From NCBI RefSeq assembly GCF_041248615.1, contig NZ_CP158426.1: a stretch of DNA of 64,000 nt; one strand, given 5' to 3'. The DNA comes from Escherichia coli. Its GTDB lineage: Bacteria > Pseudomonadota > Gammaproteobacteria > Enterobacterales > Enterobacteriaceae. Every line of letters begins with the position of its first letter. Position 1 is the stretch's first letter. Below the pieces are notes generated by a model, which ran no database searches, was not told where the DNA came from, and saw only the letters and a list, made by a program, of their open reading frames with translations. The position numbers and the translations under genes are program-made. This document shows, piece after piece, positions 873-25,478 of the stretch.

Positions 873-1802
873 TTAGAGAACGCTGAATAAATTCAACTCA
901 CTCACTTTCGAGTAAGTCTTGAGGGTAGCTTCCATTGCTACTTCCAGTCCGGTAAAGGTGATCGACGCCGGGCCGTAATCGAGATCCTGTAATGAACCAA
1001 TCAACTCATCATTAGAAGTAGAGATATCGGTCTGCGCATCGCTCAGCATCGACATGGTGTTCTGCGTCTCGCCGAGCGACGCAATCGAGGCGTTGAGGTC
1101 GTCCGAGGCGGTGTCCACCACGTTAACTGCGTTCTGAATATCGCTCTGCACCTGCGGATCGGCCGGGTCAACGTTTGGGTCTTGCAACTCCTGCGACAGG
1201 GTATTCAGTGTGTTGAGCACATCTAAATTGCTGCCGAAGAAATCGCTCGCCGCCACGTTGGTATCCACTTCCACGCCGTTCGACACCGTGGTCTGGCGGT
1301 GGTCGCTGTTGCCCTGATAGCTGTAGCTGTCGGTCACGCCATCGCCGTCATCGTCCACCGCCACAATCGGCGGCTGATCGTTGATGGTACCGCCAAACAC
1401 GTAATGCCCGTCTTCGTCCTGATAGTTCAGCGCCGCGACCATTGATTCGGTGAGCGACTCAATATCCTGCCCGAGACTTGCGAGCGAATCGGCGGTATTG
1501 GTACCATTCGCCGCTTCCAGCAGGTCGTCGCGCACCGCCAGCAGGCTGTTGTTGACGCCATCAAGAATTGATTCCTGCTGACTTAACCCCGCCGACGCGG
1601 AGTCGATATTGCTCTGATACTGCTCAATCGCCGACTGTTGGCGGTTCAACTGGGTGATGCGCGTGGCGGCGATCGGGTCATCCGACGGCTGCAAAATCTG
1701 CTTGCCGGTTGCCATCTGCTCGACCACATGCGCCAGATCGCCGGAGAGATTATTAAAACTTTGCGTCATCGAGACGTAGGTTTGTTGGGTGGTTACTCGC
1801 AT
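873..1802 (-). CDS. lfgL: Flagellar hook-filament junction protein FlgL-like (hook-associated protein 3)
   Basis: N-terminus MRVTTQQTY..PSDDPIAA matches FlgL/flagellin N-domain pattern; start moved to ATG at 1802 (GGGAG 9 nt upstream), ORF-track start 1826 would overlap flgK. Confidence 0.85.
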   Translation of the reverse strand: MRVTTQQTYVSMTQSFNNLSGDLAHVVEQMATGKQILQPSDDPIAATRITQLNRQQSAIEQYQSNIDSASAGLSQQESILDGVNNSLLAVRDDLLEAANGTNTADSLASLGQDIESLTESMVAALNYQDEDGHYVFGGTINDQPPIVAVDDDGDGVTDSYSYQGNSDHRQTTVSNGVEVDTNVAASDFFGSNLDVLNTLNTLSQELQDPNVDPADPQVQSDIQNAVNVVDTASDDLNASIASLGETQNTMSMLSDAQTDISTSNDELIGSLQDLDYGPASITFTGLEVAMEATLKTYSKVSELNLFSVL

Positions 1803-1816
1803 TTTCGCGCTCCCGC

Positions 1817-3193
1817 TTAGCTGCACATTTCCAGCACCGAATCGAAAATCTCGGCCCCGGCGGAAATGACTTTCAGATTGGCTTCATAAATTTGTTGATA
1901 GGTGATCAGGTTAACCGCCTCTTCGTCCATGCTGACGCCGCTGACGCTGCTCTGCTGGTTTTGCGCTGCGGAATAGACATTGGACGCGGCATCGACTTCC
2001 GTCTGGTTTTGCTGGCTGTAAATGCCGATATTGCTGATGATTGACGAGCACGCCTGCCCGACCGTCACGCTGCCGAGGTTGGCTATTTCCAGCGGTTCGG
2101 TGGAGATATTGATCAGCGCCTGGAGGTTGTCGCTGTTGCCGCTTTCGTCCGGCGAACTGGAGAACGCCAGCTCATCGGCGGTGATATCCGGGTTAACGGT
2201 CAGCGGGCCATCGGCGTTGCTGGCGTCATAAATAAACAGCGGCTCGCCGGGGTTACCGTTGAGATCGTAGCCCTGCGCCAGCTGGTTGTTAACCGCATCG
2301 GCGAACTGCGACGCCATACTGTTGATGGTGTCGGTCAGCGGCGTCAGCACGTCGTTTTGATAATCAAACAGTGCGCCTAATGAACCGCCGGTGTCGGTAG
2401 TCATCGTCGAGGTGGTGCCAGCGAAAGTCAGCGACATGGTCGGCGTGCCGTCGGCGTTGGTTTCCAGCGCGATGGTCGAGCTTTGCTGCCCGCTCACCAG
2501 CGGTTGACCGTTTTTCAGGGTAACGTTGTAGTTGCCCTGGTCGTCGATATTGACCTGCACATCCATCATCCCGCTGAGTTCTTCCACCATCTGGTCGCGG
2601 GCGTCGTACAGCGCGGAGGCGTTATCGCCGTTGGCTTCGGCCTGAGCGATTTGCTGGTTATAGCTGGCGATGCCGCTGGTGAGCGTGTTGATTTGCGACA
2701 CCATCGCCTGCTGCTGGCTGATGATTTCCGTGCTTTGCGAGTCGATGTAATCCAGCGTGTTGTCGATACGCAGCGACAGCGCCCCGGCTTCGCTGATCAC
2801 CTGCTCGCGCAGGGCGGAATCATCAGGGCTGGTGGTCGCTTCGTTAAGGGCGGCGAAGAAGTTATCGAACCCGCCGCTCAGGCTGCTGTTATCGTCGCTC
2901 AGTACCGCTTCCAGTTGCGTGAGATACCCCTGCTGGGTGCTGTAATAGCCGTAATCGCTGGCGGCATACCACACCTGATTCACCTGATACTGGTTAGAGA
3001 CGCGGCGAATGCTGTCGACCTGCACGCCGTTACCGGCGCTGTTTGGCGAACCGCCGCTGGCACCGATGGTGCTGATCTCCGCCACCTGACGGGTGTAGCC
3101 CGTGGTCATGGCGTTGGCGGTGTTTTGCGCCGTGACGTTCAGCTCCACCTGCGCGGTTGATGCCCCGCTGTAGCCGATGTTAATCATGTCCAT
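1817..3193 (-). CDS. lfgK: Flagellar hook-associated protein 1 FlgK-like
   Basis: 458 aa; conserved FlgK N-terminus (NTANAMTTGYTRQ) and C-terminus (SGVSMDEEAVNLITYQQIYEANLKVI). Confidence 0.9.
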   Translation of the reverse strand: MDMINIGYSGASTAQVELNVTAQNTANAMTTGYTRQVAEISTIGASGGSPNSAGNGVQVDSIRRVSNQYQVNQVWYAASDYGYYSTQQGYLTQLEAVLSDDNSSLSGGFDNFFAALNEATTSPDDSALREQVISEAGALSLRIDNTLDYIDSQSTEIISQQQAMVSQINTLTSGIASYNQQIAQAEANGDNASALYDARDQMVEELSGMMDVQVNIDDQGNYNVTLKNGQPLVSGQQSSTIALETNADGTPTMSLTFAGTTSTMTTDTGGSLGALFDYQNDVLTPLTDTINSMASQFADAVNNQLAQGYDLNGNPGEPLFIYDASNADGPLTVNPDITADELAFSSSPDESGNSDNLQALINISTEPLEIANLGSVTVGQACSSIISNIGIYSQQNQTEVDAASNVYSAAQNQQSSVSGVSMDEEAVNLITYQQIYEANLKVISAGAEIFDSVLEMCS

Positions 3194-3269
3194 GTTGGAT
3201 CCTTACCGGTAAATCGTGCCGGTTAAAAGCGGCGTTAGGTTGGGGATTCTTAAGTTCCTTAAACCGGGT

Positions 3270-3352
3270 GCCGGATGCGGCGTGAACGCCTTATCCGGCC
3301 TACATATGGGCGACTCGTAGGCCTGATAAGACGCGCCAGCATCGCATCAGGC
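3270..3352. repeat. REP/BIME element (two inverted REP units)
   Basis: gccggatgcggcgtgaacgccttatccggcctaca followed by inverted copy gtaggcctgataagacgcgccagcatcgcatcaggc in the flgK-flgJ intergenic. Confidence 0.7.
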
Positions 3353-3368
3353 ACCGAACGTCGGAGCC

Positions 3369-3668
3369 TCATTTATGCTTCGGCGATAACTGCTTCACAA
3401 TCATCGCCGCGATCCCAATCCCGTGCTGCTGCGCTAGGGTGTTACACAACTCATCGTCATAAAACCCCTGCATCATGCGCACCGAATCGCTGTTAAATGG
3501 GTTATCTTTCGAATCAAACAACTCGTTGGTTTTACGCATCTCTTTGAGCATGTTGCGTAAAAAAATCGCCTCAAACTGTTCCGCGGCCTGCCTGATATCA
3601 TTGGCCTGAACCTTCGGCCCCATTAACGCATCGCTGCCGTCAATCCCGCCACTGGCATTCACTTTCAT
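3369..3668 (-). CDS. lfgJ: FlgJ-like rod-binding protein (short, N-terminal rod-binding domain only; no muramidase domain)
   Basis: 99 aa; AAEQFEAIFLRNMLKEMRKT motif typical of FlgJ N-domain; ATGA overlap with flgI. Confidence 0.7.
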   Translation of the reverse strand: MKVNASGGIDGSDALMGPKVQANDIRQAAEQFEAIFLRNMLKEMRKTNELFDSKDNPFNSDSVRMMQGFYDDELCNTLAQQHGIGIAAMIVKQLSPKHK

Positions 3669-4783
3669 CAGATCACCTCCAGGTCGGCATCCAGCGCGCC
3701 CGCTTCATGCAGCGCCTGCAAAATCGACATAATGTCGTCCGGCGTCGCGCCTAAACTGTTCAGCGCATTGACCAGCGTTTTCAGGCTGCTCGACTCCGGC
3801 AAACTCACCACGCCAGGGCGCGCATGATTCACCGCGATATTACTCTGCGGCGTTACCGCCGTGCGCCCGCCCGCAAAGGCATTCGGCTGGCTGACGTTGC
3901 TGGTTTCGTTAATCGAAACGGTCAAACTACCGTGCGACACCGCCGCCGCGTGTAGCGCAACGCCATCGCCCATCACCACCGTGCCGGTACGCGAGTTAAA
4001 CACCACGCGAGCGCGGATTTTCTCCGCCTGCACCTGCACATCGTCCAGTTGCGACATAAACGCCACCCGCGCACCGGGGCTGGTAGGCGCGCGCACGGTG
4101 ACGTTGGTGGAACTCTGCGCCGTGGCAATGCCGCCAAACGAGGCGTTGATCGCCGCTGCAATATTATTGGCATCTTTAAACGACGGGCGTTTCAGATTGA
4201 GCGTGATGGTATCGCCCATCTGAAAATCGCTGGGGATCTCACGCTCCACCGTTGCGCCGTTGGGAATTAACCCGGCGGTCGGCGTGTTAACCGTCACGCT
4301 GGAACCGCTGGCCCCGGTGGCGTTCATCCCGCCCACCACCACGCTGCCCTGCGCGAGGGCATAAACTTCGCCATCCGCGCCGTGCAACTGCGTCAGCAAC
4401 AAAGTGCCGCCACGAATACTTTTCGCATCGCCAATCGACGAAACGGTGACATCAATGGTCTGCCCGCGCGAGTACATCGGCGGCAGCGTGGCGCTCACCG
4501 CCACCGCGGCGACGTTTTTCACCTTCGGGTCGATTTTATTCGGCAACTGCACGCCAAACTGGCGCAGCATATTGGTGATGGTCTGGTTAGTGAATTTGAC
4601 CTGGTTTTTATCGCCCGTACCGTCGAGGCCTACCACCAGGCTGTAGCCCACCAGTTGGTTTTCACGCACGCCCTGTACGTTGACCAACGACTCCAGCGAT
4701 TGCGCCAGCGCCACACCGGGCAGCGCCAGGCTTACGGCGATCGCTGCGGCCTTTATCCAGTTTTGCATTGCACTCTCCGGCAT
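3668..4783 (-). CDS. lfgI: Flagellar P-ring protein FlgI
   Basis: 371 aa, signal peptide, strong FlgI pattern ([12 protein letters not shown]...). Confidence 0.9.
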
Positions 4784-5448
4784 TAAATCGGGAACAGAGG
4801 ATGGTTAAACAGCCGCGTCAGCCAGCCTGCGGCGTTGGCGTCGCTTAACGCGCCGCGTCCGGCATAGGAGATACGGGCGTCGGCGATCCGCTGGGAGGAA
4901 ACCGAGTTGTCGTTCTGAATATCGTCGGCGCGTACCAGGCCGCTTAAGCGGATGTACTCATCGCCCTGGTTGAGGGTCAGCCATTTTTCGCCGCGAATTT
5001 CCAGGATGCCGTTGGGCTGCACCGCATGGACGGAAACGGTGATCTCCCCGCGCAGGCTGTTCTGCTGCTGGGAAGTGGCGCTGCCGTCAAAGTCGCGGTT
5101 GGCATCGATGGAGCCGGAAAGCTTATCTTTGGTGTGACCAAAAATGGTCGGTGCGCCGATGTCGACGGTGTTGTTTTTACCGAAGTTGGTTTTCGCCTGT
5201 TTGCTCGACTGGGTGGATTCTTCGAGGATCACCGTCAGGATATCGCCCACGCGGTAAGCCCGCCGATCGGCGGTGAGCGACCAGTTGTAGCCGGTTTCAA
5301 ACACGCCCCCGGCACGCCCGTCTGCCGGAGGCGGTGCTTCGGTTTTCGGTGGCGCAAAGTATGCGTCGTCTTTTTTGACCAGAATGGCCTGCGATTCACA
5401 CCCGCTAAGCAGGGGAAGCAGCGCCACCAGCCAGAGATAATTTTTCAC
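4783..5448 (-). CDS. lfgH: Flagellar L-ring lipoprotein FlgH
   Basis: Lipobox LLSGC; start moved to GTG at 5448 ([17 protein letters not shown]); the ORF-track N-terminal extension runs into a REP repeat. Confidence 0.85.
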
Positions 5449-5484
5449 GTTCTGCCTGTTTAAATACAGTGAGTTATGCGCTTT

Positions 5485-5530
5485 TGTAGGTCGGATAAGA
5501 CGCGTCAGCGTCGCATCCGACATTTCGGCC
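5485..5530. repeat. REP element
   Basis: tgtaggtcggataagacgcgtcagcgtcgcatccgac, REP-like palindrome between flgG and flgH. Confidence 0.6.
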
Positions 5531-6316
5531 TTACAGCGTCTGGCTGATGTACTGCAACATATCGTCCGCCGCCGACACCATTTTGGCGTTCATCTCGTAA
5601 GCGCGTTGCACCGTAATCATCGCCACCATTTCGTTGACGATATCCACGTTCGAGCCTTCCAGCGCATTGTCCTGCAAGGTGCCAAGCCCATCTTCGCCCG
5701 GTACGCCTTCGGTCGGCTGACCGCTGGCAGCGGTTTCCAGATAGAGGTTGTCGCCTTCAGCGGAAAGCCCCGCCGGGTTGGCGAAGTTCACCAGCGTCAG
5801 TTGCCCTAACTCAGTCACGTCGCTGTCGCCGGGTAAGATCGCTGTCACCGTGCCGTCCTCACCAAACGCAACATTCGTCGCCCCCGCCGGAACGTCGATT
5901 TCCGGCTGTAACGGCAAGCCTTGCGAGTTGGTCAGCACGCCGTCGGCGTTCACCTGCAAGTTGCCGTCGCGGGTATAGGCGATATCGCCGTTGGCCTTTT
6001 GCACCTGCAAAAACCCCTGCCCCATAATGGCGACATTCATCGCGTTGTCGGTGGTTTCGACGTTGCCTTCGGTGAAGGTTTTCTGAGTGCCAACAATGCG
6101 CACGCCGCTACCGAATTGCAGCCCGGTCGGCATGATGTTGTTCTGGTCGAGCATCGCGCCCGGCGCTTCCTGGGTCTGGTAGAACAGATCCTGAAACATC
6201 ACCCGGTCGCGCTTGAAGCCGGTGGTGTTAACGTTGGCGATGTTGTTGGCAATCGCGCTCATTTCAGCATCCTGCGCCGAGAGGCCGGTTTTGCTGATCC
6301 ATAATGCTGCGTTCAT
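5531..6316 (-). CDS. lfgG: Flagellar distal rod protein FlgG
   Basis: 261 aa; conserved rod N-terminus (ANNIANVNTTGFKRDR) and C-terminus (LEGSNVDIVNEMVAMITVQRAYEMNAK). Confidence 0.9.
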   Translation of the reverse strand: MNAALWISKTGLSAQDAEMSAIANNIANVNTTGFKRDRVMFQDLFYQTQEAPGAMLDQNNIMPTGLQFGSGVRIVGTQKTFTEGNVETTDNAMNVAIMGQGFLQVQKANGDIAYTRDGNLQVNADGVLTNSQGLPLQPEIDVPAGATNVAFGEDGTVTAILPGDSDVTELGQLTLVNFANPAGLSAEGDNLYLETAASGQPTEGVPGEDGLGTLQDNALEGSNVDIVNEMVAMITVQRAYEMNAKMVSAADDMLQYISQTL

Positions 6317-6342
6317 GGTGGTTTATTCCCTGGTGTCTGTTA

Positions 6343-7080
6343 TCACGAGCCGCGCAATAAGCGGTTGCCCGCGTCGCTGATATCTTCGGCGGTTTTCATC
6401 ATCTTGATCTGCGCTTCAAACTGGCGGTTCATGGCGATGGACGACATCATCTCGCTCACCGCCGAGACGTTACTGCCCTCCAGAAAACCGCCGCTAACTT
6501 TGATGTTTTCATCACGCTGGGCCGGAACGCCGTCGGCAGTTATCAGCATCCCTTCAGGATTTTTCGCCAGGTTAGCGACAGGAATATCCACCAGCTTCAG
6601 GCGGTCGATATCCATGGTTGCAGTCACGTCGCCGTCATCGGGCGTCACCGACAGCGTGCCGTCGCTGCCAAACGAAGCAATGGCGTTCGGCGGCAGAATG
6701 ATCGGGCCGTTATCCCCCAGCACCAGATTGCCGTCGATGGTCAGTTGCCCCTGGTCGTCCTGCTGAATGTTGCCGTTGCGGGTATACACTTCGTTGCCGT
6801 TTTTATCCTGCACCGCAATGTAACCCGCGCCCTGAATCGCCACGTCCAGCGGGCGTTCGGTTTTCTCCGCTACACCCGTGCTGTCGTTCACGCCGCTGGC
6901 CCCTTCCTGCGCCATATAGCGCGTGTCGAAGCCGCCGCCTTTCACCTTGTCGTTGGTCGCCATCGCCATGTCGGCGCGAAAACCGTTGGTGTTGACGTTC
7001 GCCAGGTTGTTGGCGCTAATCTGCTGCTCGTACAGGGTCTGAGAAGCACCGCTCAGGGCGGTATAAATCAGGCGGTCCAT
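6343..7080 (-). CDS. lfgF: Flagellar proximal rod protein FlgF
   Basis: 245 aa; rod-family N- and C-terminal motifs; gene order flgE-flgF-flgG. Confidence 0.85.
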   Translation of the reverse strand: MDRLIYTALSGASQTLYEQQISANNLANVNTNGFRADMAMATNDKVKGGGFDTRYMAQEGASGVNDSTGVAEKTERPLDVAIQGAGYIAVQDKNGNEVYTRNGNIQQDDQGQLTIDGNLVLGDNGPIILPPNAIASFGSDGTLSVTPDDGDVTATMDIDRLKLVDIPVANLAKNPEGMLITADGVPAQRDENIKVSGGFLEGSNVSAVSEMMSSIAMNRQFEAQIKMMKTAEDISDAGNRLLRGS

Positions 7081-8282
7081 TACATTGCCTGGAACAGCGC
7101 GTCATCGAGCTGCGTGCTGGTGGCGATAACTTTGGTGTTGGCCTGATAGTTACGCTGGGCGGTCATCAGGTTGACCAGTTCGCTGGTGATATCGACGTTA
7201 GAGCTTTCGAGCACGCCCGACGATAGCGTGCCGCAGGTGCCGGAGCCGGGAACGCCAATCAGCGGGGTGCCGGATTCCCCGGTTTGTACCCACGCGGTGC
7301 CGCTCACCGCTTCGAGTCCGTTTTCATTCGGGAAAGTCGCCAGCACCACCTGGCCCTGCAACATGCGCTCGCCGTTGCTGTAGGTGGCGTAAACTTTGCC
7401 ATCGTCATCGACCTGCACACCGTTTTGCGTTGCGGAGGCGTAGCCGTTGGCGGCGTTGGTGGTGACCGAAAATTCAGAGCCGTATTGCGTACAGGTGGAG
7501 TAATCGACGGTTAAGTCGATGGGTGCGGCGGCGTCGGTCTGAAACTCAATGGTCTGTGGCGTGGTTGGCGAGGTCAGCTTCCCGGTGTTCGGGTCGAAGG
7601 TTAATGTCGTCGCCGGAACGCCAGTCTGCTGCTGACCGTCGAAGGTGTACTGCACTTCCCAGGTGTTGTCGCTGGTTTTGGTGAAATACTGGCATACCGA
7701 GTGTTCGTTACCTAATGAGTCATATACCGTGGTGGTGTAGCTGTCGGTATACGAGCTGCTGTTGGTCGCGTCGAACGGTACGGTTGTACGGTCTATAGCC
7801 GCATCGCTGGCATCGAAGTTAGCGGTAAAGGTCAGGCTGCTGCTGGCCTGCGCCGGGATATTGCCGGTTTTGATCTGGATATCGGTGACCGTACCGGTTT
7901 GCAGAGTGCCCGTGTCATCGACCGGATAACCCTGTAAATAAGCGCCCGAGGCGTTGACAATATAGCCGTTTTTGTCGGTTTCAAACGATCCGGCGCGGGT
8001 ATAAGAAATGTTGCCCGCGCTGTCGCAGGTAACAAAAAAGCCGTCGTTGTTAATCGCCAGATCCAGCGCGTTACCGGTGGAGACCAGCGAACCGCCGCGC
8101 GAAATACTTTGCGCGGTGCCTGCCACGCTGACGCCCATCGCCTGACTTCCGGCATACATGGCTGAAAACTGGGTGGTCATCGACTTATAGCCTACCGTTC
8201 CGGCGTTGGCGATGTTGTTACTGATCCCGTCGAGCTGTTCGTTAACGGCATTCAGCCCCGTTGCGGCAATTTCATAACTCAT
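7080..8282 (-). CDS. lfgE: Flagellar hook protein FlgE
   Basis: 400 aa; hook-family termini (ISNNIANAGTVGYK ... LESSNVDITSELVNLMTAQRNYQANTKVI). Confidence 0.9.
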   Translation of the reverse strand: MSYEIAATGLNAVNEQLDGISNNIANAGTVGYKSMTTQFSAMYAGSQAMGVSVAGTAQSISRGGSLVSTGNALDLAINNDGFFVTCDSAGNISYTRAGSFETDKNGYIVNASGAYLQGYPVDDTGTLQTGTVTDIQIKTGNIPAQASSSLTFTANFDASDAAIDRTTVPFDATNSSSYTDSYTTTVYDSLGNEHSVCQYFTKTSDNTWEVQYTFDGQQQTGVPATTLTFDPNTGKLTSPTTPQTIEFQTDAAAPIDLTVDYSTCTQYGSEFSVTTNAANGYASATQNGVQVDDDGKVYATYSNGERMLQGQVVLATFPNENGLEAVSGTAWVQTGESGTPLIGVPGSGTCGTLSSGVLESSNVDITSELVNLMTAQRNYQANTKVIATSTQLDDALFQAM

Positions 8283-8329
8283 TGTTTCTTCCTGTTAATT
8301 CAAATTTTGACAGCGTGCCCGTTGTTTTG

Positions 8330-8410
8330 CCGGATGCGGCGTGAACGCCTTATCCGGCCTACAAAACCATGCAGTTTCATGTAGGCCTGATAAGCGAAGC
8401 GCATCAGGCA
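8330..8410. repeat. REP/BIME element (two inverted REP units)
   Basis: gccggatgcggcgtgaacgccttatccggcctaca ... tgtaggcctgataagcgaagcgcatcaggc between flgE and flgD. Confidence 0.7.
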
Positions 8411-8425
8411 ATTTGGCACCGGACA

Positions 8426-9139
8426 TCACGCCACATCACTGTCGGCATCGGGTACGCCAAACTGGCTAATCATGGTGAACGGCACTTCGCCCACGCCTGC
8501 AACATTGAGCACCGGAGAGCTGCCGTCGAGCGGGATGCGCACATCTTCCACTTCGCCGGAGACTTCAATCGGCACCTCTTCTTCCCCGGTGTTGGTGACC
8601 ACCGAGACGTCGTAATCGCCCGGCGGGATACCGTAATCCGCCGGATTAATCGAGAAATCGACCTGGCCTGGCCCGACGGACGAACTGCCTTCCGGGATCA
8701 GCGACACCGTATAGTCATCGCCTGCGGCATCGGTAAAGTGGAGATCGGCGGTGGTACAGGCGTCGTCAAGCGTGGCGCGACCATTAATGGTCTGGTCGCT
8801 CACCTGCAAGGCGGTGGTCTGCACCATAATGTCGTCACCCACCAGGTTGCCGAGCGCCATCACCTGAATGTTGCTCATCAGCACCGCGTTGGTGTTGGCC
8901 TGCACACTCATCTCTTCCATCATCGCCACCTGCGCCATCGAAGAAAGCTGGTCGATATATTCGGTGGCGTCAGTCGGGTCGGTCGGGTCCTGGTTTTGGA
9001 TCTCAGCGACAAACAGCGTCAGGAAAGTATCAACGGGCGAGCTATCGCTGCTACTTTGCGTGTCGCTGGCCGCCACGTTGTTGCTTTCCGCCGTGGCGGT
9101 CGGCTGCGGCGATTGCGCATTCAGCGCCAGGGTATTCAT
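8426..9139 (-). CDS. lfgD: Flagellar hook assembly/capping protein FlgD
   Basis: 237 aa; FlgD-like central motif (FLTLFVAEIQNQDPTDP); position between flgC and flgE. Confidence 0.85.
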   Translation of the reverse strand: MNTLALNAQSPQPTATAESNNVAASDTQSSSDSSPVDTFLTLFVAEIQNQDPTDPTDATEYIDQLSSMAQVAMMEEMSVQANTNAVLMSNIQVMALGNLVGDDIMVQTTALQVSDQTINGRATLDDACTTADLHFTDAAGDDYTVSLIPEGSSSVGPGQVDFSINPADYGIPPGDYDVSVVTNTGEEEVPIEVSGEVEDVRIPLDGSSPVLNVAGVGEVPFTMISQFGVPDADSDVA

Positions 9140-9570
9140 CAGGCTTCTCCCAGTTTCAGCAGGCTTTGCTGCATACTTTTCACGTTGTTGAGCACATCGA
9201 CATTGGTTTCAAAATCGCGCGAGGCCGACATCATGTCCGCCATCTGTTCCACCACGTTGACGTCGGGATACCAGACATCCCCGTTAGCATCGGCGAGCGG
9301 CGAATGCGGTTCATAGCGTTTCACCGCCCCGCCGGTTTGCAGCACGTCCTGCACCTGCACGCTGGCACCATCAATGGCATGGCGATGCGTTCCCGCCAGC
9401 AAGCTGTGGTGATACACCGCCGCAAACACCGGGCTGCGCGCTTTATACGCCTGCGCCTCGCTGCCGGCAGGTGCATTGGCATTCGCCAGGTTACTGGCAA
9501 CGGTATTCAGACGTAGCGTTTGCGCCGTCATCGCCGAGCCGGAAATCTGATAGATATCAGTAAATGACAT
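9139..9570 (-). CDS. lfgC: Flagellar rod protein FlgC
   Basis: 143 aa; MSFTDIYQISGSAMTAQ..NLANANA.. typical FlgC. Confidence 0.9.
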   Translation of the reverse strand: MSFTDIYQISGSAMTAQTLRLNTVASNLANANAPAGSEAQAYKARSPVFAAVYHHSLLAGTHRHAIDGASVQVQDVLQTGGAVKRYEPHSPLADANGDVWYPDVNVVEQMADMMSASRDFETNVDVLNNVKSMQQSLLKLGEA

Positions 9571-9572
9571 GC

Positions 9573-9908
9573 TTATTTCCCTTCAATGGCCTCTCTGATG
9601 CCGCTGATTTGCAGATTCAGAAAGGTCAGACTGCTTTGATAATCCATACTATTTTGTGAAAACCGCGCCTGTTCGCTGTTTAGTTCCACGGTGTTGCCAT
9701 CTTCCGACGGCTGCATCGGCACGCGGTACTGGACATCCACCGCCGCGTTATTTGCCCGTTGCATCTCCCTGGCAAAATCAATATCTTTAGCCTTGAAATT
9801 TGGCGTATCGACGTTCGCCAGATTCGCAGTCAGTAGCTCGGTCCTCTCAAGACGTAACTTCACTGCCTGCGGATGCACTCCCAATGCCTGTTGAAAACTG
9901 ATCCCCAT
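9573..9908 (-). CDS. lfgB: Flagellar rod protein FlgB
   Basis: FlgB motif LLTANLANVDTPNFKAKDIDF; start moved to ATG at 9908 because the ORF-track start 9938 lies upstream of the transcription start implied by the sigma-54 promoter. Confidence 0.85.
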   Translation of the reverse strand: MGISFQQALGVHPQAVKLRLERTELLTANLANVDTPNFKAKDIDFAREMQRANNAAVDVQYRVPMQPSEDGNTVELNSEQARFSQNSMDYQSSLTFLNLQISGIREAIEGK

Positions 9909-9944
9909 TTCCTGCGTCACTCCTGCTTCAATCCGCATACGCTA

Positions 9945-9960
9945 AGCAATCGCCGTGCCA
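9945..9960 (-). promoter_or_regulatory. sigma-54 (-24/-12) promoter for the lfgB operon
   Basis: Minus strand reads TGGCACGGCGATTGCT, a full match to TGGCACG-N4-TTGCW. Confidence 0.6.
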
Positions 9961-9989
9961 TTTTTTAAGTCACTGATGAGAAAGGGTTT

Positions 9990-10727
9990 ATGAGTTTTCA
10001 ATTTTGCAGGCGGAAGTTGTTCTTCCTCCTGGTGCTGGCCTTACCGGGCTACGCCGCCGTCCACCCCGTGCAACACAGCGCGCGGGAACAAGTCAACGCC
10101 CAGGTGCTGAATGCCGCGAGCCAGGAAATTGAATCGATGGCGCAGCAACGGCAGTGGCATGACTATCGCTACACCTTTAAGGTCTACATTCCCTCGCAGA
10201 TTGCGACCGCCGCCCCCTGTGCGACAACACCCGGCGTTACGCTCACTTCGCCTGCGGACATCGCCCTCAACCGGATGAACTTCACCGTCAGTTGCCCGCA
10301 AAGCTGGCAGATGAACGTGGCGGTGCGCCCGGATGTACTGGTGCCCGTGGTGATGACAAAGTCACTGGTTGCCCGCGATACGCCGCTCACGGCGAATGAT
10401 GTGGAGTTGAAGCCCTACAACTTCAGCGCCCAGCGGCGGGATGTGTTGATGGAGCTCGATGACGCAATTGGTTTAAGCAGTAAGCACGCGTTGCAACCGG
10501 GCAGGCCCATCACCAAAGAAGAGCTGGTTTCGCCAGTGCTGGTCGAACGCGATCAGCCGGTGATGATTGTTTACCAGAGCGCGGGGATCACCGCCTCGAT
10601 GCCCGGCGTGGCGCTGAAAAATGGCCGCAAAGGCGAGATGGTGAAAGTACGTAACGCAAGCAGCCAGCGGGTCATCAGCGCGATGGTGGCAGAAAGCGGC
10701 GTGGTGACGACGGTAAGCGCGGAGTAA
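9990..10727 (+). CDS. lfgA: Flagellar P-ring assembly chaperone FlgA-like
   Basis: 245 aa, signal peptide, divergent from flgB as in flagellar loci; moderate family resemblance. Confidence 0.75.
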   Translation: MSFQFCRRKLFFLLVLALPGYAAVHPVQHSAREQVNAQVLNAASQEIESMAQQRQWHDYRYTFKVYIPSQIATAAPCATTPGVTLTSPADIALNRMNFTVSCPQSWQMNVAVRPDVLVPVVMTKSLVARDTPLTANDVELKPYNFSAQRRDVLMELDDAIGLSSKHALQPGRPITKEELVSPVLVERDQPVMIVYQSAGITASMPGVALKNGRKGEMVKVRNASSQRVISAMVAESGVVTTVSAE

Positions 10728-10914: not shown

Positions 10915-12339
10915 ATGTCTGAATTTGAATTGCTCGTGAAAGATCTTCTTTTAAAATCAGAAGAAGACGAGAAAAAGCGACAAGAAAAAGATCGAGAATT
11001 AATTTCAAAGGTTCTTGAAATCTATGATCAAAAATATGTTGCAGAACTCCTACGAAAAGTAGGAAAAAATGAATGGAGCAGAGAAACACTTAACCGTTGG
11101 ATAAATGGTAAGTGTAACCCTAAACAATTAACTTCTGCTGAGGAAACTTTACTTCGAAAGATGCTCCCAGAACCTCCCGAACATCATCCTAACTATACAT
11201 TTCGTTTTATTGATTTATTCGCAGGGATTGGTGGTATTCGTAAAGGCTTCGAAAATATTGGTGGGCAGTGTGTTTTTACTAGCGAATGGAATAAAGAAGC
11301 GGTAAGAACCTACAAAGCTAATTGGTTTAATGATGAACTAAATCATAAATTTAATCTTGATATACGAGAAGTCACTTTAAGTGATAGAGATGATGTTTCC
11401 GAAATGGAAGCCTATAATCATATAGACAAAAATATTCCAGATCATGATGTCCTTCTGGCCGGTTTTCCATGTCAACCCTTTAGTCTGGCTGGGGTAAGCA
11501 AGAAAAATTCTCTGGGGCGTGCACATGGTTTTGAATGTGAGGCACAAGGAACACTATTTTTTGATGTCGCTCGAATTATTAAATCAAAAAAACCAGCTAT
11601 TTTTGTGCTTGAGAATGTGAAGAACCTTAAAAGTCATGATAAAGGTAAGACTTTTAAAGTCATCATGGAAACACTCAATGAATTAGGGTATGAAGTCGCC
11701 GATGCTGGTGTGACTGGCTCAGATGATCCTAAAATTATAGATGGAAAACATTTTTTACCCCAACATCGTGAGCGTATAGTGTTGGTAGGATTTCGTAGGG
11801 ATCTAAATATTCACAAGGATTTCACGTTACGAAATATTAACCGCTTTTACCCTCAAAACAGGCCAACATTTGGTGAATTATTAGATCATGATGTTGACGA
11901 CAAATATATTTTGACTCCAAGGTTATGGGAATATCTTTACAATTATGCAAAAAAACATGCAGCAAAAGGAAATGGATTTGGTTTTGGTTTAGTGGATCCT
12001 AAAAATCCAGATAGTATCGCACGAACGCTGTCTGCTCGTTACCATAAAGATGGCTCTGAAATACTGATCGATCGTGGCTGGGATAAGGCTGTCGGTGAAA
12101 TCGATTTTAGTAATCCAGCGAATCAAGAGAATCGACCAAGAAGACTGACACCTCATGAATGTGCCAGGTTAATGGGTTTTGAAAAACCAGGGGGAAGACC
12201 TTTTAGAATACCTGTATCAGATACTCAAGCTTATAGACAATTTGGGAACTCAGTTGTTGTGCCAGTATTTGAAGCTGTAGCAAGATTACTAGAACCGTAC
12301 ATACAAAAGGCTGTCAGCATGCAAGTTATTAACGATTAA
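10915..12339 (+). CDS. DNA cytosine-5 methyltransferase, Dcm/M.EcoRII family (predicted CCWGG specificity)
   Basis: 474 aa; motif I FAGIGG, motif IV PCQPFS, ENV, QFGNSV; near-collinear with M.EcoRII/Dcm as recalled; gene is AT-rich unlike flanks. Confidence 0.9.
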
Positions 12340-12362
12340 TAATAATTAACTTTCACTATTGT

Positions 12363-12386
12363 GAGGCCTTTTTTATTAAAGGCCTC
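12363..12386. terminator. Hairpin between convergent methyltransferase and endonuclease genes (candidate bidirectional terminator)
   Basis: gaggccttt-tttatt-aaaggcctc perfect 9-bp stem in AT-rich context. Confidence 0.4.
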
Positions 12387-12426
12387 TAAATATATAATCA
12401 TAAGTTATTATAAGTATACTTTTATA

Positions 12427-13632
12427 TTATACAAAATCTTCATACAGCGTTATTAACTGTGTGATAAAACCCTCTAACGTTAATAATCCCTCCCTGATTT
12501 CCTCCGGATATTTTTTATGAAGAGGGGAAGGTACAACCAAGGTGACACCTTCAGCTCTCATTTCGTTAAATTGAGCAACTGAGACACCCTCTTGTAAGGT
12601 AAACAAATATATTTTGTTGATTTTATTTGCTTCATTGAGTGCCTGACGCCACCGATCCTTACATGTTGTTTTTACAGCAAGCATACGGAGTTTTTCTCTT
12701 GGAAAGTGATCATCATGGTAAGCTGCCGCTGATGGAAAAAGAAAATCGGGTTTCTTTTTTCCTTCAGTAATACATTGAGTAGCAAAATGATGCAGTCCAT
12801 GCTCAATAAAAATTTGCTCAAGATGTAGCTCCAGTGATTTCCCGGCTCGAGATTTTCTTCGATTACTAACAGAGTTAGCCATAGCTATAAAATCATCTAC
12901 AGAACCAAACCCTTGACGGATGATGTCCAGTACGTGAATTTCTTCAACCATTAGAAAGAGATCATATTCAATACGGCGGCGTTCTAAAAGTTGGTCATCT
13001 GGACTGGTTACGCCTGTTGGGTAATAACCCGCAGCATATTGAATAATCTCTAAGCCAGAAGGAAAGCTATGTTTCCAGCTTTCCGGAATAACATATTCCT
13101 TTTGAGAGATTTTTGGCCTTGATGCGAGTACACCAAGTATTTCACTGGCAGGCCCAAACATTAAAGTTCCAGGAATGATCTCCCCAATAGCTGATTCCAG
13201 TACATCCTCTTCTTCTGGGCTAACACAAACCCATACATCAACACTTTTGCTGTCTCTCCCTGGCTCATGTTCAAACGCAAGCACAGACAAAGCACCTGTA
13301 TTTTCCGGATCCTGTAGGGGACTGCCAGCCCCCCACCGAGTGATGCGTTTTTCATTTCTTGTTTGCCCGAAATACTTATTATTGTAGTAAATAGCGCGAA
13401 CCTCACTGTCTACACATTCATGAGAGGAATAAGTTGCGCGCAATAAAACCGAAGGATTTTTTTCTGACGTATGATCTATAGATGGGAAAAGTTCAGCGAC
13501 GATACCAGAAGGGATATATACCCCCACTTGATGCCCTCCTGTTGCACCAGTGTCGTTTGCTGAAAGACGTTTAATATAGAGATAGTTGTTACCACCGACC
13601 TTATCAAGCAGCCAATCTTGTAATCCTGACAT
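12427..13632 (-). CDS. Type II restriction endonuclease, EcoRII-like
   Basis: 401 aa; N-terminal YIKRLSANDTGATGGHQVGVYIPSGI and overall layout match EcoRII as recalled; convergent with the MTase; AT-rich. Confidence 0.75.
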   Translation of the reverse strand: MSGLQDWLLDKVGGNNYLYIKRLSANDTGATGGHQVGVYIPSGIVAELFPSIDHTSEKNPSVLLRATYSSHECVDSEVRAIYYNNKYFGQTRNEKRITRWGAGSPLQDPENTGALSVLAFEHEPGRDSKSVDVWVCVSPEEEDVLESAIGEIIPGTLMFGPASEILGVLASRPKISQKEYVIPESWKHSFPSGLEIIQYAAGYYPTGVTSPDDQLLERRRIEYDLFLMVEEIHVLDIIRQGFGSVDDFIAMANSVSNRRKSRAGKSLELHLEQIFIEHGLHHFATQCITEGKKKPDFLFPSAAAYHDDHFPREKLRMLAVKTTCKDRWRQALNEANKINKIYLFTLQEGVSVAQFNEMRAEGVTLVVPSPLHKKYPEEIREGLLTLEGFITQLITLYEDFV

Positions 13633-14521: not shown

Positions 14522-14597
14522 CGCGAATACCTTCCCCATAGCGGAAATGGATTTTCCGCCTGATTCACAATCCTTTGTTTTTGATTATAAAAATTCC

Positions 14598-14613
14598 CGG
14601 CACGCTTATTGCA
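14598..14613 (+). promoter_or_regulatory. sigma-54 (-24/-12) promoter upstream of hypothetical/glycosyltransferase operon
   Basis: cGGCACGcttaTTGCA, 15/16 match to TGGCACG-N4-TTGCA, 35 nt upstream of ATG at 14648. Confidence 0.55.
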
Positions 14614-14647: not shown

Positions 14648-15580
14648 ATGAGTTTTATTGAATGTTACGAACCGGAATACGTGCGCAATTTTATGACGCA
14701 ATATCCCGATTCGCCTTTGTACATCCGCAAGGTGTGGAAAAACGAGATTCGCCAGAGCCTGATGCTGACAGAGCCAGAAAGCTGCGAAGCGGTGCTCAAC
14801 GATGCCAGGGCCTTTGATTTACAGCTCACCTACCGCCCGGCGGAAGATAATGCCGCAGAACTCTCCGCGCGCGATGCGATAGTAAACCAGGTCATTTTGA
14901 GCACCCTTACGCTCCCCGATTTACCCCCGGAGCTTTCACTGTACGCCGTCGGGATTTTGCTCTCCCGCGCCAGCAAAATGCCGGGCAGAGACGGAGATAT
15001 TCTTGCCCGCTTGACGACGCTGCCACAGGCGCTGGCCGATCATGCACAAAAAGGCACGCTACAGGCACAGTTCGCCCAGCTGCCGCCCGTGCCACAGCTG
15101 GCGCGCCAGTTGATGACGCTGCTCGGCAGTTGTGCGTTTGACTGGTCGATTCTGCCGGAAAGCCCGCGCAAAACTTCGCTGCCGTTGCAGATGCCTTTGC
15201 TGGCGCTACATGACGCCAACAGCGAAGCCCTGTTACAACAGCAGCTTCAGGCACAGTGGCAAACCACCTGGCAACAGCATTTTGCCACCGCGCCCTGGAT
15301 GATGCGTAACTGGCTGATTTACCGCGTTTACCATGAGGTGATTGGGCAGGCAGACGGAGCAGATTATTGCCCGCTGGTGTGCGATTTTTATCTTATCCGC
15401 ACGTTAATCAGTTTATGGACGCTGGATGGTTCTCCGCTGCGACAGGAGGATATTTTCGCCCTCTTTGCCATGTTTGAACGCTGGCGAGCCAGTGAAAATG
15501 CTGTGCTGATTCGCCAACAAATTCAGGCTGAACGTTCCGCAGATCCCCTGCTTTATGCGTTTTCACTGCTGTCTTGCTAA
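14648..15580 (+). CDS. Hypothetical protein (Flag-2 associated, family not recognised)
   Basis: Long ORF with ATG at 14648 downstream of the sigma-54 promoter; ORF-track start 14609 is a TTG inside the promoter. Confidence 0.6.
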   Translation: MSFIECYEPEYVRNFMTQYPDSPLYIRKVWKNEIRQSLMLTEPESCEAVLNDARAFDLQLTYRPAEDNAAELSARDAIVNQVILSTLTLPDLPPELSLYAVGILLSRASKMPGRDGDILARLTTLPQALADHAQKGTLQAQFAQLPPVPQLARQLMTLLGSCAFDWSILPESPRKTSLPLQMPLLALHDANSEALLQQQLQAQWQTTWQQHFATAPWMMRNWLIYRVYHEVIGQADGADYCPLVCDFYLIRTLISLWTLDGSPLRQEDIFALFAMFERWRASENAVLIRQQIQAERSADPLLYAFSLLSC

Positions 15581-15626: not shown

Positions 15627-18092
15627 ATGCAAACCCTCATCAAAACACTCGCCACCCAGCGCGAAAAACCGTTCGTCAGCGTCGTCACGCCCACATGGAA
15701 CCGTAGCGCATTCCTGCCGTACCTGCTCTATATGTACCGCTATCAGGACTACCCGGCAGACCGCCGCGAACTGGTCATCCTCGACGACTCGCCGCAAAGC
15801 CATCAGCACATCATCGACCGTTTGACCGATGGCACGCCGGAAGCCTTTAACATCCGCTACATCCATCATCAGGAAAGACTGCCGCTGGGCAAAAAACGCA
15901 ACATGCTCAATGAACTGGCAGTGGGGGAATATATCCTCTGCATGGATGACGACGACTACTACCCGGCAGATAAAATCTCTTACACCATCGCCATAATGCA
16001 AAAACACCGGGCGCTCATCTCCGGTTCCGACCAGATCCCCATCTGGTACAGCCACATCAATCGCATCTTCCAAAGCCGCAGCTTTGGCTCACATAACATC
16101 CTCAACGGCACCTTTTGCTATCACCGTAACTACCTGAAAAAGCACCGTTACGACGATGATTGTAATTTAGGCGAAGAGAAAAGTTTCACCAACAATTTCA
16201 GCGTTAACCCGCTACAACTGCCCGGCGAGCGCACGATTTTGTGTATCTCGCATAGCCACAACACCTTTGATAAAGACTTTATTCTCGGGGCCAGCACGCC
16301 AGTAAACGCGGCGCTTACGGATATCGTCCGCGATCCGCTGCTCCGCAACGCCTATCTGAGTCTGCATAACGCCACTCATCACCAGGCGATCAACCATCAG
16401 GCGATCGATCAGGTCGTACTGATCAATCTGGATAAACGCCCGGATCGCTTACAACAGATCCGTGAAGAACTGGCATTGCTGCATATTCCACCTGAGAAGA
16501 TCACCCGCCTTGCCGCCAGTGAAGATCAAAACGGCCAACGGGGACGACGCCAGTCGCACTTGCAGGCGCTGCGCCTGGCGCAACAGCACGGCTGGCAAAA
16601 CTACCTGCTGCTGGAAGATGACGCGGTTATTCTCAAGCAGGAAAAACATATTCAGGTACTGAACACGCTGCTGGCGAGCCTGGCGAAAATTCCCTGGCAG
16701 GTGATGATCCTTGGCGGCGAAATTTCGCAGGGAACGATGCTAAAAAGTTTGCCGGGGCTGGTGCACGCGCGGGACTGCCGCAAGGTGTGCGCTTATCTGG
16801 TGAACAGCCGCTACTACCCGCAACTGGCGCAGCAGATGAGCAACGATGAGCACTCGCTGGAAGAGTGCTGGCAGCCGCTGCTACACGCCGACAAATGGCT
16901 GGCCTGTTACCCGAGCCTTTGTTACCAGCGACCGGGCTTTAGTGATATCGAGAAAAAAACGACTGACAACATTGCTCACTATTTCAATAAGTTACCCGTA
17001 GCCACCAAGCCATCTACATTACCCATCGCCGATACCATCGGCTTTTTTATGGAAACCTCATTCCACTACGCGCTCTACCGCCCAATCATCACCGCTCTGC
17101 AGGCGCAGGGGCAGAGCTGTACGCTGGTGATCAATGACCGCGTATTTAAACCATTTCTGGATGAAATGCTGGCGACGCTAAAAAGCATTGACGATCCGCA
17201 GCTCAAAGGTATGCGCTTATCTGAAATGCAGGCGCACGGTCAGCGGGTAAAATGCCTGGTCAGCCCCTATCACACGCCCGCGCTCAGTGGCCTGGCAGCG
17301 GTGAACGTCCGCGCCATGTACGGCTTAGCCAAAGAGGCGTGGAACCACGCCGACTGGAATCGTTTTTACCAACGCATTTTGTGTTATAGCCACTACAGCC
17401 AGCAGACACTGGCGCATTTCGGTAGCGCAAAAGTGGTCGGCAATCCACGTTTCGACGCCTGGCATAACGGCACGTTTGCCCGCACTCTGCCGGAAAATAT
17501 TCAACCCGATTCCCGTAAACCTACGGTGCTCTACGCCCCCACGTTTGGCGCATTAAGCTCCCTGCCCCACTGGGCAGAAAAATTGGGGCGCTTAAGCGGT
17601 GATGTGAACCTGATTTGCAAACTGCACCACGGCACCTGCTCGCGCCCGGAAGAAGCTGCATCGCTGGCACTGGCGCGCAGGCATTTAAAACAGCGCACCG
17701 ACTCCGCCCGCCACACGCTGGCGCTACTGGCAAAGGCCGATTACGTGCTGACCGATAACAGCGGCTTTATTTTCGATGCTATCCACGTTGATAAGCGGGT
17801 GATCCTGCTCGACTTTCCGGGCATGAGTGAATTACTCGAAGGCGAGAAAAGCTACTCCACGCCGGAGAGCGCCGATCAGCAAATCCGCGAAATATTGCCG
17901 GTGGCTCATGATATGGCAGAGTTGCGTTACTTGTTGTCAGAGGCGTTTGACTGGGGGGCGGTGCAGGCGCGGCTTACGAAGATTCGTCATCACTATTGCG
18001 ATGCGTTTATGGATGGCAAGGCGGGAGAACGGGCGGCGATGGTGATTGTGGAGGCGCTGGCGGACAAGGAATCGTCAGGGATATGTCGATAA
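15627..18092 (+). CDS. Multidomain glycosyltransferase: N-terminal GT2-like, central GT25-like, C-terminal CDP-glycerol glycerophosphotransferase (TagB/TagF)-like
   Basis: 821 aa; GT2-type start (VSVVTPTWNRSAF..DD..DDDD), GT25-like VLINLDKRPDRL, TagF-like VLYAPTFG and LHHGT motifs. Confidence 0.75.
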   Translation: MQTLIKTLATQREKPFVSVVTPTWNRSAFLPYLLYMYRYQDYPADRRELVILDDSPQSHQHIIDRLTDGTPEAFNIRYIHHQERLPLGKKRNMLNELAVGEYILCMDDDDYYPADKISYTIAIMQKHRALISGSDQIPIWYSHINRIFQSRSFGSHNILNGTFCYHRNYLKKHRYDDDCNLGEEKSFTNNFSVNPLQLPGERTILCISHSHNTFDKDFILGASTPVNAALTDIVRDPLLRNAYLSLHNATHHQAINHQAIDQVVLINLDKRPDRLQQIREELALLHIPPEKITRLAASEDQNGQRGRRQSHLQALRLAQQHGWQNYLLLEDDAVILKQEKHIQVLNTLLASLAKIPWQVMILGGEISQGTMLKSLPGLVHARDCRKVCAYLVNSRYYPQLAQQMSNDEHSLEECWQPLLHADKWLACYPSLCYQRPGFSDIEKKTTDNIAHYFNKLPVATKPSTLPIADTIGFFMETSFHYALYRPIITALQAQGQSCTLVINDRVFKPFLDEMLATLKSIDDPQLKGMRLSEMQAHGQRVKCLVSPYHTPALSGLAAVNVRAMYGLAKEAWNHADWNRFYQRILCYSHYSQQTLAHFGSAKVVGNPRFDAWHNGTFARTLPENIQPDSRKPTVLYAPTFGALSSLPHWAEKLGRLSGDVNLICKLHHGTCSRPEEAASLALARRHLKQRTDSARHTLALLAKADYVLTDNSGFIFDAIHVDKRVILLDFPGMSELLEGEKSYSTPESADQQIREILPVAHDMAELRYLLSEAFDWGAVQARLTKIRHHYCDAFMDGKAGERAAMVIVEALADKESSGICR

Positions 18093-24119: not shown

Positions 24120-25106
24120 TCAGGAGAAAACTTCGATACCTTGCTTGCGCATGGAGGCCAGTCGATAGCGCAGTGCGCGCGGGGTAATGCCTAACAGGTC
24201 GGCAATTTTGCTGCGGTTGCCCTGATATTTACGCATCAGGTCGGCGATATATTGATACTGGGCGCTACGTCCGGCCTGGCCTAAATCGCTGGTTTCCGCA
24301 ACAGATACGGAGGGCTGAACAGGCCATTGCAGTTCACTGTGATCGGCAACGTCTATTTCCGGCAGGCCTAAGGCATCCGGGAAAATCACGCCGTCGCGAT
24401 TTAAAATCATTCCACGCTGAATGGCGTTCTCCAGCTGGCGCACGTTGCCGGGCCAGCGGTAATTGAGCAGCGCCCGGCGAGTAGATTCTGAAAGGGTGAT
24501 ATTTTTCACCAGCACTGTGGAGTATTTTTTAATAAATGACTCTGCCAGCGGGATAATATCGTTCAGGCGTTCACGCAGCGGCGGCATGGTAATAGGAATA
24601 ACCGCCAGACGATAATAGAGATCTTCACGAAAACGCCCGGCGGCGACTTCCTGCTCAAGGTTTTTATTGGTGCAGGCAATCAGGCGAAAATTGAGTTTAA
24701 TTTGTCGGTTACTGCCTAATCGCTCAACCTGCTGTTCCTGCAATACGCGTAATATTTTGGCCTGTAGCGCCAGCGGCATATCGCCAATTTCATCGAGCAA
24801 TAAGGTGCCGTTATTCGCCAGTTCCATTTTTCCTGGCACGCTGGCAATTGCGCCGGTAAATGCGCCTTTGTCGTAGCCAAATAAGGTAGATTCCAGCATG
24901 TTTTCCGGGATCGCCGCGCAGTTCACGCCGATATAGGGCGCGTTATCATTTTCACCAAAGGCTACGGTGTGAATATATTTCGCCACGCATTCTTTGCCCG
25001 CGCCGGTTTCGCCCTGAATGAGCACCGGCACGTTAAATGCGGCGACACGCTTTGCCAGAGTAAAAGCGTTAATGCTGGAAGCGGCAGTTGCAATAAGTTC
25101 AGACAT
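24120..25106 (-). CDS. lafK: sigma-54-dependent transcriptional activator (LafK-like), no N-terminal receiver domain
   Basis: 328 aa; Walker A GETGAGKE, GAFTGA sigma-54 contact motif, C-terminal HTH. Confidence 0.9.
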   Translation of the reverse strand: MSELIATAASSINAFTLAKRVAAFNVPVLIQGETGAGKECVAKYIHTVAFGENDNAPYIGVNCAAIPENMLESTLFGYDKGAFTGAIASVPGKMELANNGTLLLDEIGDMPLALQAKILRVLQEQQVERLGSNRQIKLNFRLIACTNKNLEQEVAAGRFREDLYYRLAVIPITMPPLRERLNDIIPLAESFIKKYSTVLVKNITLSESTRRALLNYRWPGNVRQLENAIQRGMILNRDGVIFPDALGLPEIDVADHSELQWPVQPSVSVAETSDLGQAGRSAQYQYIADLMRKYQGNRSKIADLLGITPRALRYRLASMRKQGIEVFS

Positions 25107-25261
25107 AGGGTGAACGATATAAGTAGCGACAGAAAACAGGATGTTCTGAAGCGTATCACCGGCGGGATTAACAAGTTCGAATTAAACGATAATAAAAATA
25201 TTATTTGATGGTAAACAATTAGTTAGATATTAATACTGTTAATTTGGACATCTGTGATGCC

Positions 25262-25303
25262 CCCTCACCCTAACCCTCTCCCCGGATGGGGCGAGGGGAC
25301 AGA
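25262..25303. repeat. GC-rich imperfect palindromic intergenic repeat (copy A)
   Basis: cccctcaccctaaccctctccccggatggggcgaggggacag; reverse complement shares ctgtcccctcgcccc..ggggagaggg with the copy at 31735. Confidence 0.35.
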
Positions 25304-25478
25304 CCGCAGACTGATTGGCGAAAATCACTCCCATTAAGCAATTAATCGATTAATTATTTTTTCATCCTATTAATAATTTGCCCCTTTCACTCCCCCTCTA
25401 TTTAATACCTCACCTTGTGTCACTGCCTGATTTGCGTGCACAAAATCGCCCATACCATTACAGCAGAGAAAGTAAGCC

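Follow-up and report, generated by a model that had tools for sequence, protein, structure and literature searches.

The closest described counterparts of the E. coli lfgB promoter are the promoters of the lateral rod/hook operons of Vibrio and Aeromonas. LafK, together with sigma-54, is the activator of class II lateral genes (PMC4481668, PMC3658858, PMC11242183), a role described for V. parahaemolyticus in particular (PMC4481668, PMC3658858). In this species, the promoter of flgB2 (VPA0264) reads ATGGCACGTATCTTGTTTG and binds RpoN in EMSA, and flgB2C2D2 expression is reduced in an rpoN mutant (PMC9817140). In A. hydrophila, promoter-reporter assays placed the lateral PflgB(L) in class II, up-regulated by LafK, and PfliM in class I (PMC5013049). 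In many enterobacteria, Flag-2 is reported to be cryptic or decayed (PMC6993521) and the clusters have been called non-functional (PMC4481668), so the lfgB promoter may rarely fire. For Flag-2 transcription in E. coli (mapped start, rpoN or lafK mutants, LafK binding), no study was found in the literature searched.

Within E. coli, the pspA promoter offers a further parallel. Its activator PspF is a receiver-less sigma-54 activator with an AAA+ domain and a C-terminal HTH, and its upstream site, some 80-100 bp away from the start, is separated from the promoter by bent or AT-rich DNA. The two systems differ in regulon, binding sequence and control logic, PspA being a negative regulator of PspF. 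LafK has been classed as a receiver-less activator and grouped with PspF and HrpR/S as type Ic (PMC3162934).

The window, that is, the whole stretch of 64 kb that was analysed, is E. coli chromosome. Its segment 9400-10800 is 100% identical to NZ_OW967178.1, a record annotated with the Flag-2 (lateral-type) locus, and a homologous segment was found in 1279 of 5426 complete E. coli genomes, about a quarter. The features around lfgB, together with lafK, are the following:

873..9570, minus strand: lfgC-D-E-F-G-H-I-J-K-L, the downstream genes of a putative operon, co-directional and tightly spaced (PGAP annotation of the identical record).
9573..9908, minus strand: lfgB, a FlgB-type proximal rod protein of 111 aa with its start codon at 9908-9906 (PGAP CDS; Pfam Flg_bb_rod).
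9920..9924, minus strand: Shine-Dalgarno AGGAG of lfgB, 11 nt before the ATG (read from the sequence; the (C/A)AGGAG spacing is kept in most orthologues).
9933..9935, minus strand: predicted start of transcription, at about 9934; the leader would measure about 26 nt (from sigma-54 geometry, with the C of GC as -12).
9945..9960, minus strand: predicted sigma-54 core promoter of lfgB, with the -24 GG at 9959-9958 and the -12 GC at 9947-9946.
9961..9977, minus strand: AT-rich stretch between dyad and -24, ATCAGTGACTTAAAAAA, with an IHF-like core; its other strand includes the lfgA ribosome-binding region.
9990..10727, plus strand: lfgA, a FlgA-type P-ring chaperone, divergent from lfgB (PGAP CDS; Pfam ChapFlgA).
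10012..10026, no strand assigned: dyad GGAAG-AACAA-CTTCC (minus-strand reading), candidate LafK enhancer (UAS), centred at about -85 within lfgA codons 8-13.
24120..25106, minus strand: lafK, a receiver-less sigma-54 activator of 328 aa (Pfam Sigma54_activat 6-172, AAA_lid_14, HTH_8 284-317).

As assumed by an earlier reading made from the sequence only, a rod/hook operon follows the promoter: lfgB heads an lfgBCDEFGHIJKL run in the Flag-2 locus, although the extent of the lfgB-L operon is itself predicted from gene order. REP/BIME-type palindromic elements (GCCGGATGCGGCGTGAACGCCTTATCCGGCCTAC...) were observed within this run at 3194-3368, in the lfgK/lfgJ gap, and at 8283-8425, in the lfgE/lfgD gap; possible roles there are stabilisation of the mRNA or partial termination.

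The minus strand from 9960 to 9945 reads TGGCACGGCGATTGCT and fits TGGCAC-N5-TTGCW at 11 of 11 specified positions, with the GG and GC doublets exactly 10 nt apart. The match to the -24/-12 consensus at every specified position, as claimed in the sequence-only reading, was thus confirmed. The site lies on the lfgB strand within the 81-bp lfgB-lfgA gap, and its -12 C is 38 nt from the ATG at 9908, a distance repeated in 12 orthologues and ranging from 34 to 83 nt in the remainder. A transcription start near 9934 had also been proposed, and the arithmetic is correct with C(-12) at 9946; the exact start of E. coli lfgB is a prediction from the promoter geometry, and the sigma-54 (RpoN) dependence of the gene is likewise predicted. 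A generic sigma-70 and terminator scan of 9700-10250 returned nothing.

Considering both strands of the whole 64 kb window, TGGCACGGCGATTGCT is the sole exact consensus match. Dinucleotide-preserving shuffles gave 0.11 exact matches expected per window, with at least one match in 11 of 100 shuffles, so that the window count on its own carries little significance. When up to two mismatches were allowed, sites were no more numerous than expected by chance (32 found and 44 expected). It is position and conservation, and not the window count, that place the lfgB site beyond chance. The near-consensus matches at 3058 (+), 22399 (-), 47378 (+) and 55475 (+) were set aside as chance, being intragenic, on the wrong strand, or without the GC or a dyad.

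Conservation was assessed by a scan for LfgB with one genome per species, which gave 79 loci. Of these, 29 are Enterobacterales Flag-2 loci, including Escherichia, Pseudocitrobacter, Citrobacter, Phytobacter, Enterobacter, Pseudescherichia, Buttiauxella, Pantoea and Leminorella. The motif TGGCA[C/T]-N5-TTGC was found upstream of lfgB in 29 of 29 Flag-2 loci of other Enterobacterales, with a variable spacer; since the loci are phylogenetically related, this count and the 30/30 given below for the dyad do not represent independent events. When a sense-strand GG-N10-GC site was sought within 120 nt upstream of lfgB, the score was at least 9/11 in 29/29 loci and at least 10/11 in 28/29. The background in the same loci was 10 sites of at least 9/11 in 299 kb of strand, or 0.004 per 120 nt, and eight of these ten sites correspond to a second genuine promoter. 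In an alignment of 23 sequences, TGGCA and TTGC are invariant, while the leader and the 5-nt spacer (GGCGA, GGTAA, ATATA, ACATA, GCTTG and others) diverge freely. Overall, the core promoter is conserved across at least 15 genera.

Within E. coli, five strains with 92-100% identity kept both GG and GC. In one of them, strain RMDEC465 (locus L089, NZ_CM177019.1 2131722-2131974), a weakened -24 element (TGGCGC) is accompanied by a stop at lfgB codon 7 (CAA TAA), and PGAP calls a shortened gene there, an example of promoter and gene decaying jointly.

The position of the promoter also bears on the start codon of lfgB, which the sequence-only reading had moved from 9938 to 9908. The start at 9908 is the correct one, since it is the PGAP start, it follows the conserved AGGAG, and it is aligned in the orthologues: the equivalent codon is conserved as ATG/GTG-GGN-ATN-AGT-TTT (M-G-I-S-F) in all 23 aligned sequences. 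The ATG at 9938 is confined to the Escherichia/Pseudocitrobacter clade, has no ribosome-binding site and falls between the -12 element and the predicted +1; with the latter at about 9934, it would be upstream of the transcript.

On the opposite side, lfgA begins in the interval that separates the dyad from the -24 element of lfgB. It had been noted that under 30 bp were left for the divergent lfgA promoter. The figure itself was right, as 9961-9989 comprises 29 bp, but the crowding was understated, since the probable enhancer inside lfgA puts the lfgA start within the enhancer-to-core interval of lfgB. With its gene starting there, any promoter of lfgA has to share sequence with the core promoter, the leader or the coding region of lfgB. 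On the plus strand, the search for an lfgA promoter gave no sigma-54 site, no sigma-28-like site and no relaxed sigma-70-like site. The sigma-28 scan also failed upstream of lfgM and lafA, so it may not fit the lateral sigma-28.

The AT-rich stretch between dyad and -24 resembles an IHF site. Compared with the IHF consensus WATCAANNNNTTR, the window sequence CATCAGTGACTTA has one to two mismatches, at the W and the second A. A TCA-N5-TTA pattern is invariant in the 23-sequence alignment and resembles the IHF core, but on the other strand these positions also serve as the lfgA ribosome-binding region. Only 2 of 30 lfgB promoters have the strict core, a difference from the pspA promoter. Beyond lfgA, a Dcm-type cytosine methyltransferase (474 aa, plus strand) and an EcoRII-type restriction endonuclease (401 aa, minus strand) were observed at 10915-13632, an insertion that separates lfgA from lfgMN. 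This cargo is already known from 21 Escherichia strains, which carry it in their flag-2 loci (PMC6993521).

The dyad GGAA-N7-TTCC was found in 30/30 Enterobacterales lfgB promoters (related loci, as stated above), 66-69 nt upstream of the -24 T, with all seven spacer bases varying. At lfgB, the minus strand from 10026 to 10007 reads GGAAG-AACAA-CTTCCGCCTG. Because of its overlap with lfgA codons, the dyad could owe some of its conservation to coding constraint. In Buttiauxella-type loci, the dyad is at lfgA codons 2-6, with the lfgA start codon abutting it, and the offset to -24 is still kept; since the offset is maintained where the lfgA start has moved, the dyad goes with the promoter rather than with the LfgA protein. 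This fixed offset and the existence of non-coding copies argue against the coding explanation.

In total, the 29 loci contain 63 dyads, of which 29 precede the lfgB promoter and 21 follow lfgN. All 21 post-lfgN dyads are followed by a sigma-54 site of at least 9/11, at 55-56 or 64-67 nt; of random positions, only 5% are followed in range by a site of at least 8/11. The composite of a dyad, 37-57 nt and GGCAY-N5-TTGC occurs twice in the window (0.00 expected) and was found in all the Enterobacterales Flag-2 loci examined. With 0.00 expected per 64 kb, it is specific enough for annotating LafK-dependent promoters in genomes. Two other dyads, one within lfgG at 5889 and one within the EcoRII cargo gene at 13085, were discarded as chance, no credible sigma-54 site following them.

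In more distant lateral systems, TGGCAY-N5-TTG(T/A/C) with a dyad at the same place was found in lateral loci of Shewanella, Parashewanella, Marinobacter, Aeromonas, Vibrio, Ferrimonas and a Budvicia-like contig, the -12 element of these systems being TTGT, TTGA or TTGC. Counted from the dyad start to the -24 T, the offsets were:

Vibrio ziniensis: 56 nt.
Ferrimonas: 68 nt.
Shewanella halifaxensis: 68 nt.
Budvicia-like contig: 68 nt.
Shewanella OPT22: 69 nt.
Marinobacter (N8 spacer): 77 nt.
A. hydrophila: 80 nt.

Over all taxa, the offsets fall at 55-56, 64-69 and 77-80 nt, in classes about 11 bp, or one helical turn, apart (55/66/77). Such classes are as expected for an activator confined to a single face of the helix. 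To control for specificity, 47 non-lateral flgB loci (Nitrosomonas, Sphingomonas, Methylophaga and others) were examined: 42 of them have a sigma-54 site upstream, and the dyad is present in 0 of these 42.

Extra TTTCC/GGAAA half-sites were observed 15-25 nt upstream of the main dyad in several genera (loci L017, L019, L022, L037 and L085), for example TTTCCGCCAGCGGAAA-N8-GGAAAAGGGCTTTCC in L019, and in Vibrio ziniensis the main dyad is preceded, 44 nt further upstream, by another one with an N8 spacer. These additional elements may reflect multiple LafK dimers.

Two further promoters of the same design belong to the E. coli locus:

14543..14613, plus strand: second promoter, just after lfgN, with dyad GGAAATGGATTTTCC (14543-14557) and, 55 nt on, CGGCACGCTTATTGCA (14598-14613).
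8006-8076 of locus L001, minus strand: third promoter, upstream of lafB/fliD, GGAAACACCATTTCCGCCTG and, 55 nt on, TGGCACGCCTTTTGCC; same genome, ~2.5 kb beyond the left end of the window.

The three sigma-54 promoters thus share an upstream dyad located 55-69 nt from -24. In the second one, positions 14543-14562 read GGAAA-TGGAT-TTTCCGCCTG, and 21 of 29 orthologous loci have kept the promoter at this place after lfgN. It reads into a 310-aa hypothetical gene (14648-15580), for which Pfam gave no match, and an 821-aa glycosyltransferase (15627-18092). This arrangement suggests that LafK also controls the variable, probably flagellin-glycosylation, region after lfgN. In the third promoter, the 3' end of TGGCACGCCTTTTGCC is 31 nt before the lafB/fliD ATG; the site agrees with the RpoN site predicted for lafB of V. 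parahaemolyticus (PMC9817140). An IHF-like core (AATCAATAGATTG, opposite strand) was also seen there between the dyad and the -24/-12 site.

In the literature searched, no DNA site for LafK is described, and older primary papers could already list one. The dyad is most probably the LafK enhancer, since it is specific to the LafK lineage, it is symmetric, which fits a dimeric HTH_8, and it is positionally coupled to sigma-54 promoters. Consistency with LafK control had been claimed from the promoter match, and the comparison upholds it: lafK is present in the window, and experiments in V. parahaemolyticus (PMC9817140) and in A. hydrophila (PMC5013049) have shown sigma-54/LafK dependence of the orthologous promoters. 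The encoded protein is intact, with GAFTGA at residue 81, a C-terminal HTH_8 and no receiver domain. From these data, we infer that E. coli lfgB depends on LafK and that the dyad is where LafK binds.

Taken together, the lfgB element is very likely a sigma-54 (RpoN) class II promoter of the Flag-2 rod/hook operon, activated by LafK through the upstream dyad. In the proposed mechanism, the sigma-54 holoenzyme would bind GG(-24)/GC(-12), 9959-9946, as a closed complex, and LafK, whose gene lies in this locus at a distance of 14 kb, would bind GGAA-N7-TTCC about 85 bp upstream, in the first lfgA codons. LafK would then reach the holoenzyme across the AT-rich DNA and open the promoter by ATP hydrolysis, with transcription from about 9934 and LfgB translation from 9908. 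The promoter itself is an expected kind of element; what is new here is the conserved upstream dyad in the neighbouring gene and the predicted three-promoter LafK regulon. The Vibrio/Aeromonas model is thereby extended to E. coli, with a predicted activator site added, and the current understanding is not overturned. The analysis concerns the regulatory logic of the E. coli Flag-2 rod/hook operon and the correct lfgB start, and the -24/-12 core with its candidate enhancer, found from Enterobacterales to Vibrio, Aeromonas and Shewanella, gives a handle on whether and when Flag-2 is expressed.

Other readings of the site were weighed against the same data. That the match arose by chance, with lfgB transcribed from another promoter (sigma-70 or sigma-28), could draw on the exact match that appears somewhere in 11 of 100 window shuffles. 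However, neither a sigma-70-like site in 9700-10250 nor a sigma-28-like site was found, the element occupies the same position in 29/29 loci with a variable spacer, and the composite with the dyad is expected 0.00 times; the comparative data effectively refute this reading, and its probability is negligible. It is harder to dismiss, though still quite improbable, that the site is conserved but non-productive, either as the relic promoter of a never-activated Flag-2 or as a 'parking' site where the holoenzyme represses the divergent lfgA. Flag-2 clusters are often degraded and have been called non-functional in several enterobacteria (PMC6993521, PMC4481668), promoter and gene have decayed jointly in one sampled E. 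coli strain, and since only 29 bp separate the lfgA start from the -24 element, the lfgA leader would be covered by a closed complex bound there. In the present strain, however, lafK is intact and no Flag-2 gene under the NZ_OW967178.1 match is annotated as a pseudogene. That the -24/-12 bases and the dyad are under purifying selection in many genera implies that they are used, and the orthologous promoters are active and LafK/RpoN-dependent in Vibrio (PMC9817140) and Aeromonas (PMC5013049).

A sigma-54 promoter whose dyad is not the LafK site is unlikely as well, yet it is the alternative to which we give most weight. The dyad would then serve another factor, or lfgA coding or translation, and LafK would act from elsewhere or from solution. 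In its favour, the dyad at lfgB overlaps lfgA codons 8-13, the basic/hydrophobic start of the signal peptide, and some activators are enhancer-free, as FlgR and FleT have no DNA-binding domains (PMC3162934). LafK, in contrast, retains its HTH_8 DNA-binding domain, and the dyad is also found in non-coding DNA before two other sigma-54 promoters of the locus. Moreover, its offset is fixed to -24 and not to the lfgA ATG and steps by about 11 bp, and it is absent from all 42 sigma-54 flgB promoters of lineages without lateral flagella. Binding of LafK to the dyad is therefore the reading we prefer.

A broader proposal, held with somewhat less assurance than the LafK-activated promoter itself but still favoured on balance, is that GGAA-N7-TTCC is the LafK site of gammaproteobacterial Flag-2/lateral loci and defines a compact LafK regulon, phased at 55, 66 or 77 nt. 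In E. coli, it would have three members, namely the operons of lfgB and lafB and the hypothetical-plus-glycosyltransferase unit, with the lfgA start in the enhancer-to-promoter loop. If this is true, lfgA expression would be physically coupled to lfgB activation, the enhancer being written into the lfgA signal-peptide codons.

Compared with the known systems, the E. coli promoter resembles that of V. parahaemolyticus flgB2 in the orthologous gene and its position, first in the lateral rod/hook operon and divergent from flgA(L), and in the -24/-12 element. It differs at -12, where E. coli has the canonical TTGC and the Vibrio/Shewanella group TTGT, and in the lfgB-lfgA gap, which is much shorter in E. 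coli, so that the dyad falls inside lfgA, whereas it is intergenic in Vibrio ziniensis. PflgB of A. hydrophila AH-3 belongs to the same operon and is controlled by the same activator family, and an A. hydrophila genome (L081) shows the same dyad and -24/-12-like design. Here, the differences are the offset of 80 nt, the -12 region TTGA and the overlap of the called flgA(L) start with the -24 box. In that genome (L081, 2437-2449), the called start codon is the complement of the CAT in the TGGCAT -24 box. Polar or primary flgB promoters (Vibrio polar flgB VP0775, PMC9817140; Nitrosomonas, Sphingomonas, Methylophaga) also have a -24/-12 element, 40-70 nt upstream of flgB, but they use other activators (FlrC/FleR type) and none of the 42 examined has the dyad.

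Finally, the lafK-lfiM intergenic region (25107-25478) was scanned and contained no sigma-54 site scoring at least 8/11. Since the region has no such site, the lafK-lfiM operons are presumably LafK-independent class I, as in Aeromonas (PMC5013049). This divergent region is 372 bp long and AT-rich; within it, one palindromic segment (CCCTCTCCCCGGATGGGGCGAGGGGACAG) is GC-rich and looks similar to a repetitive extragenic element.
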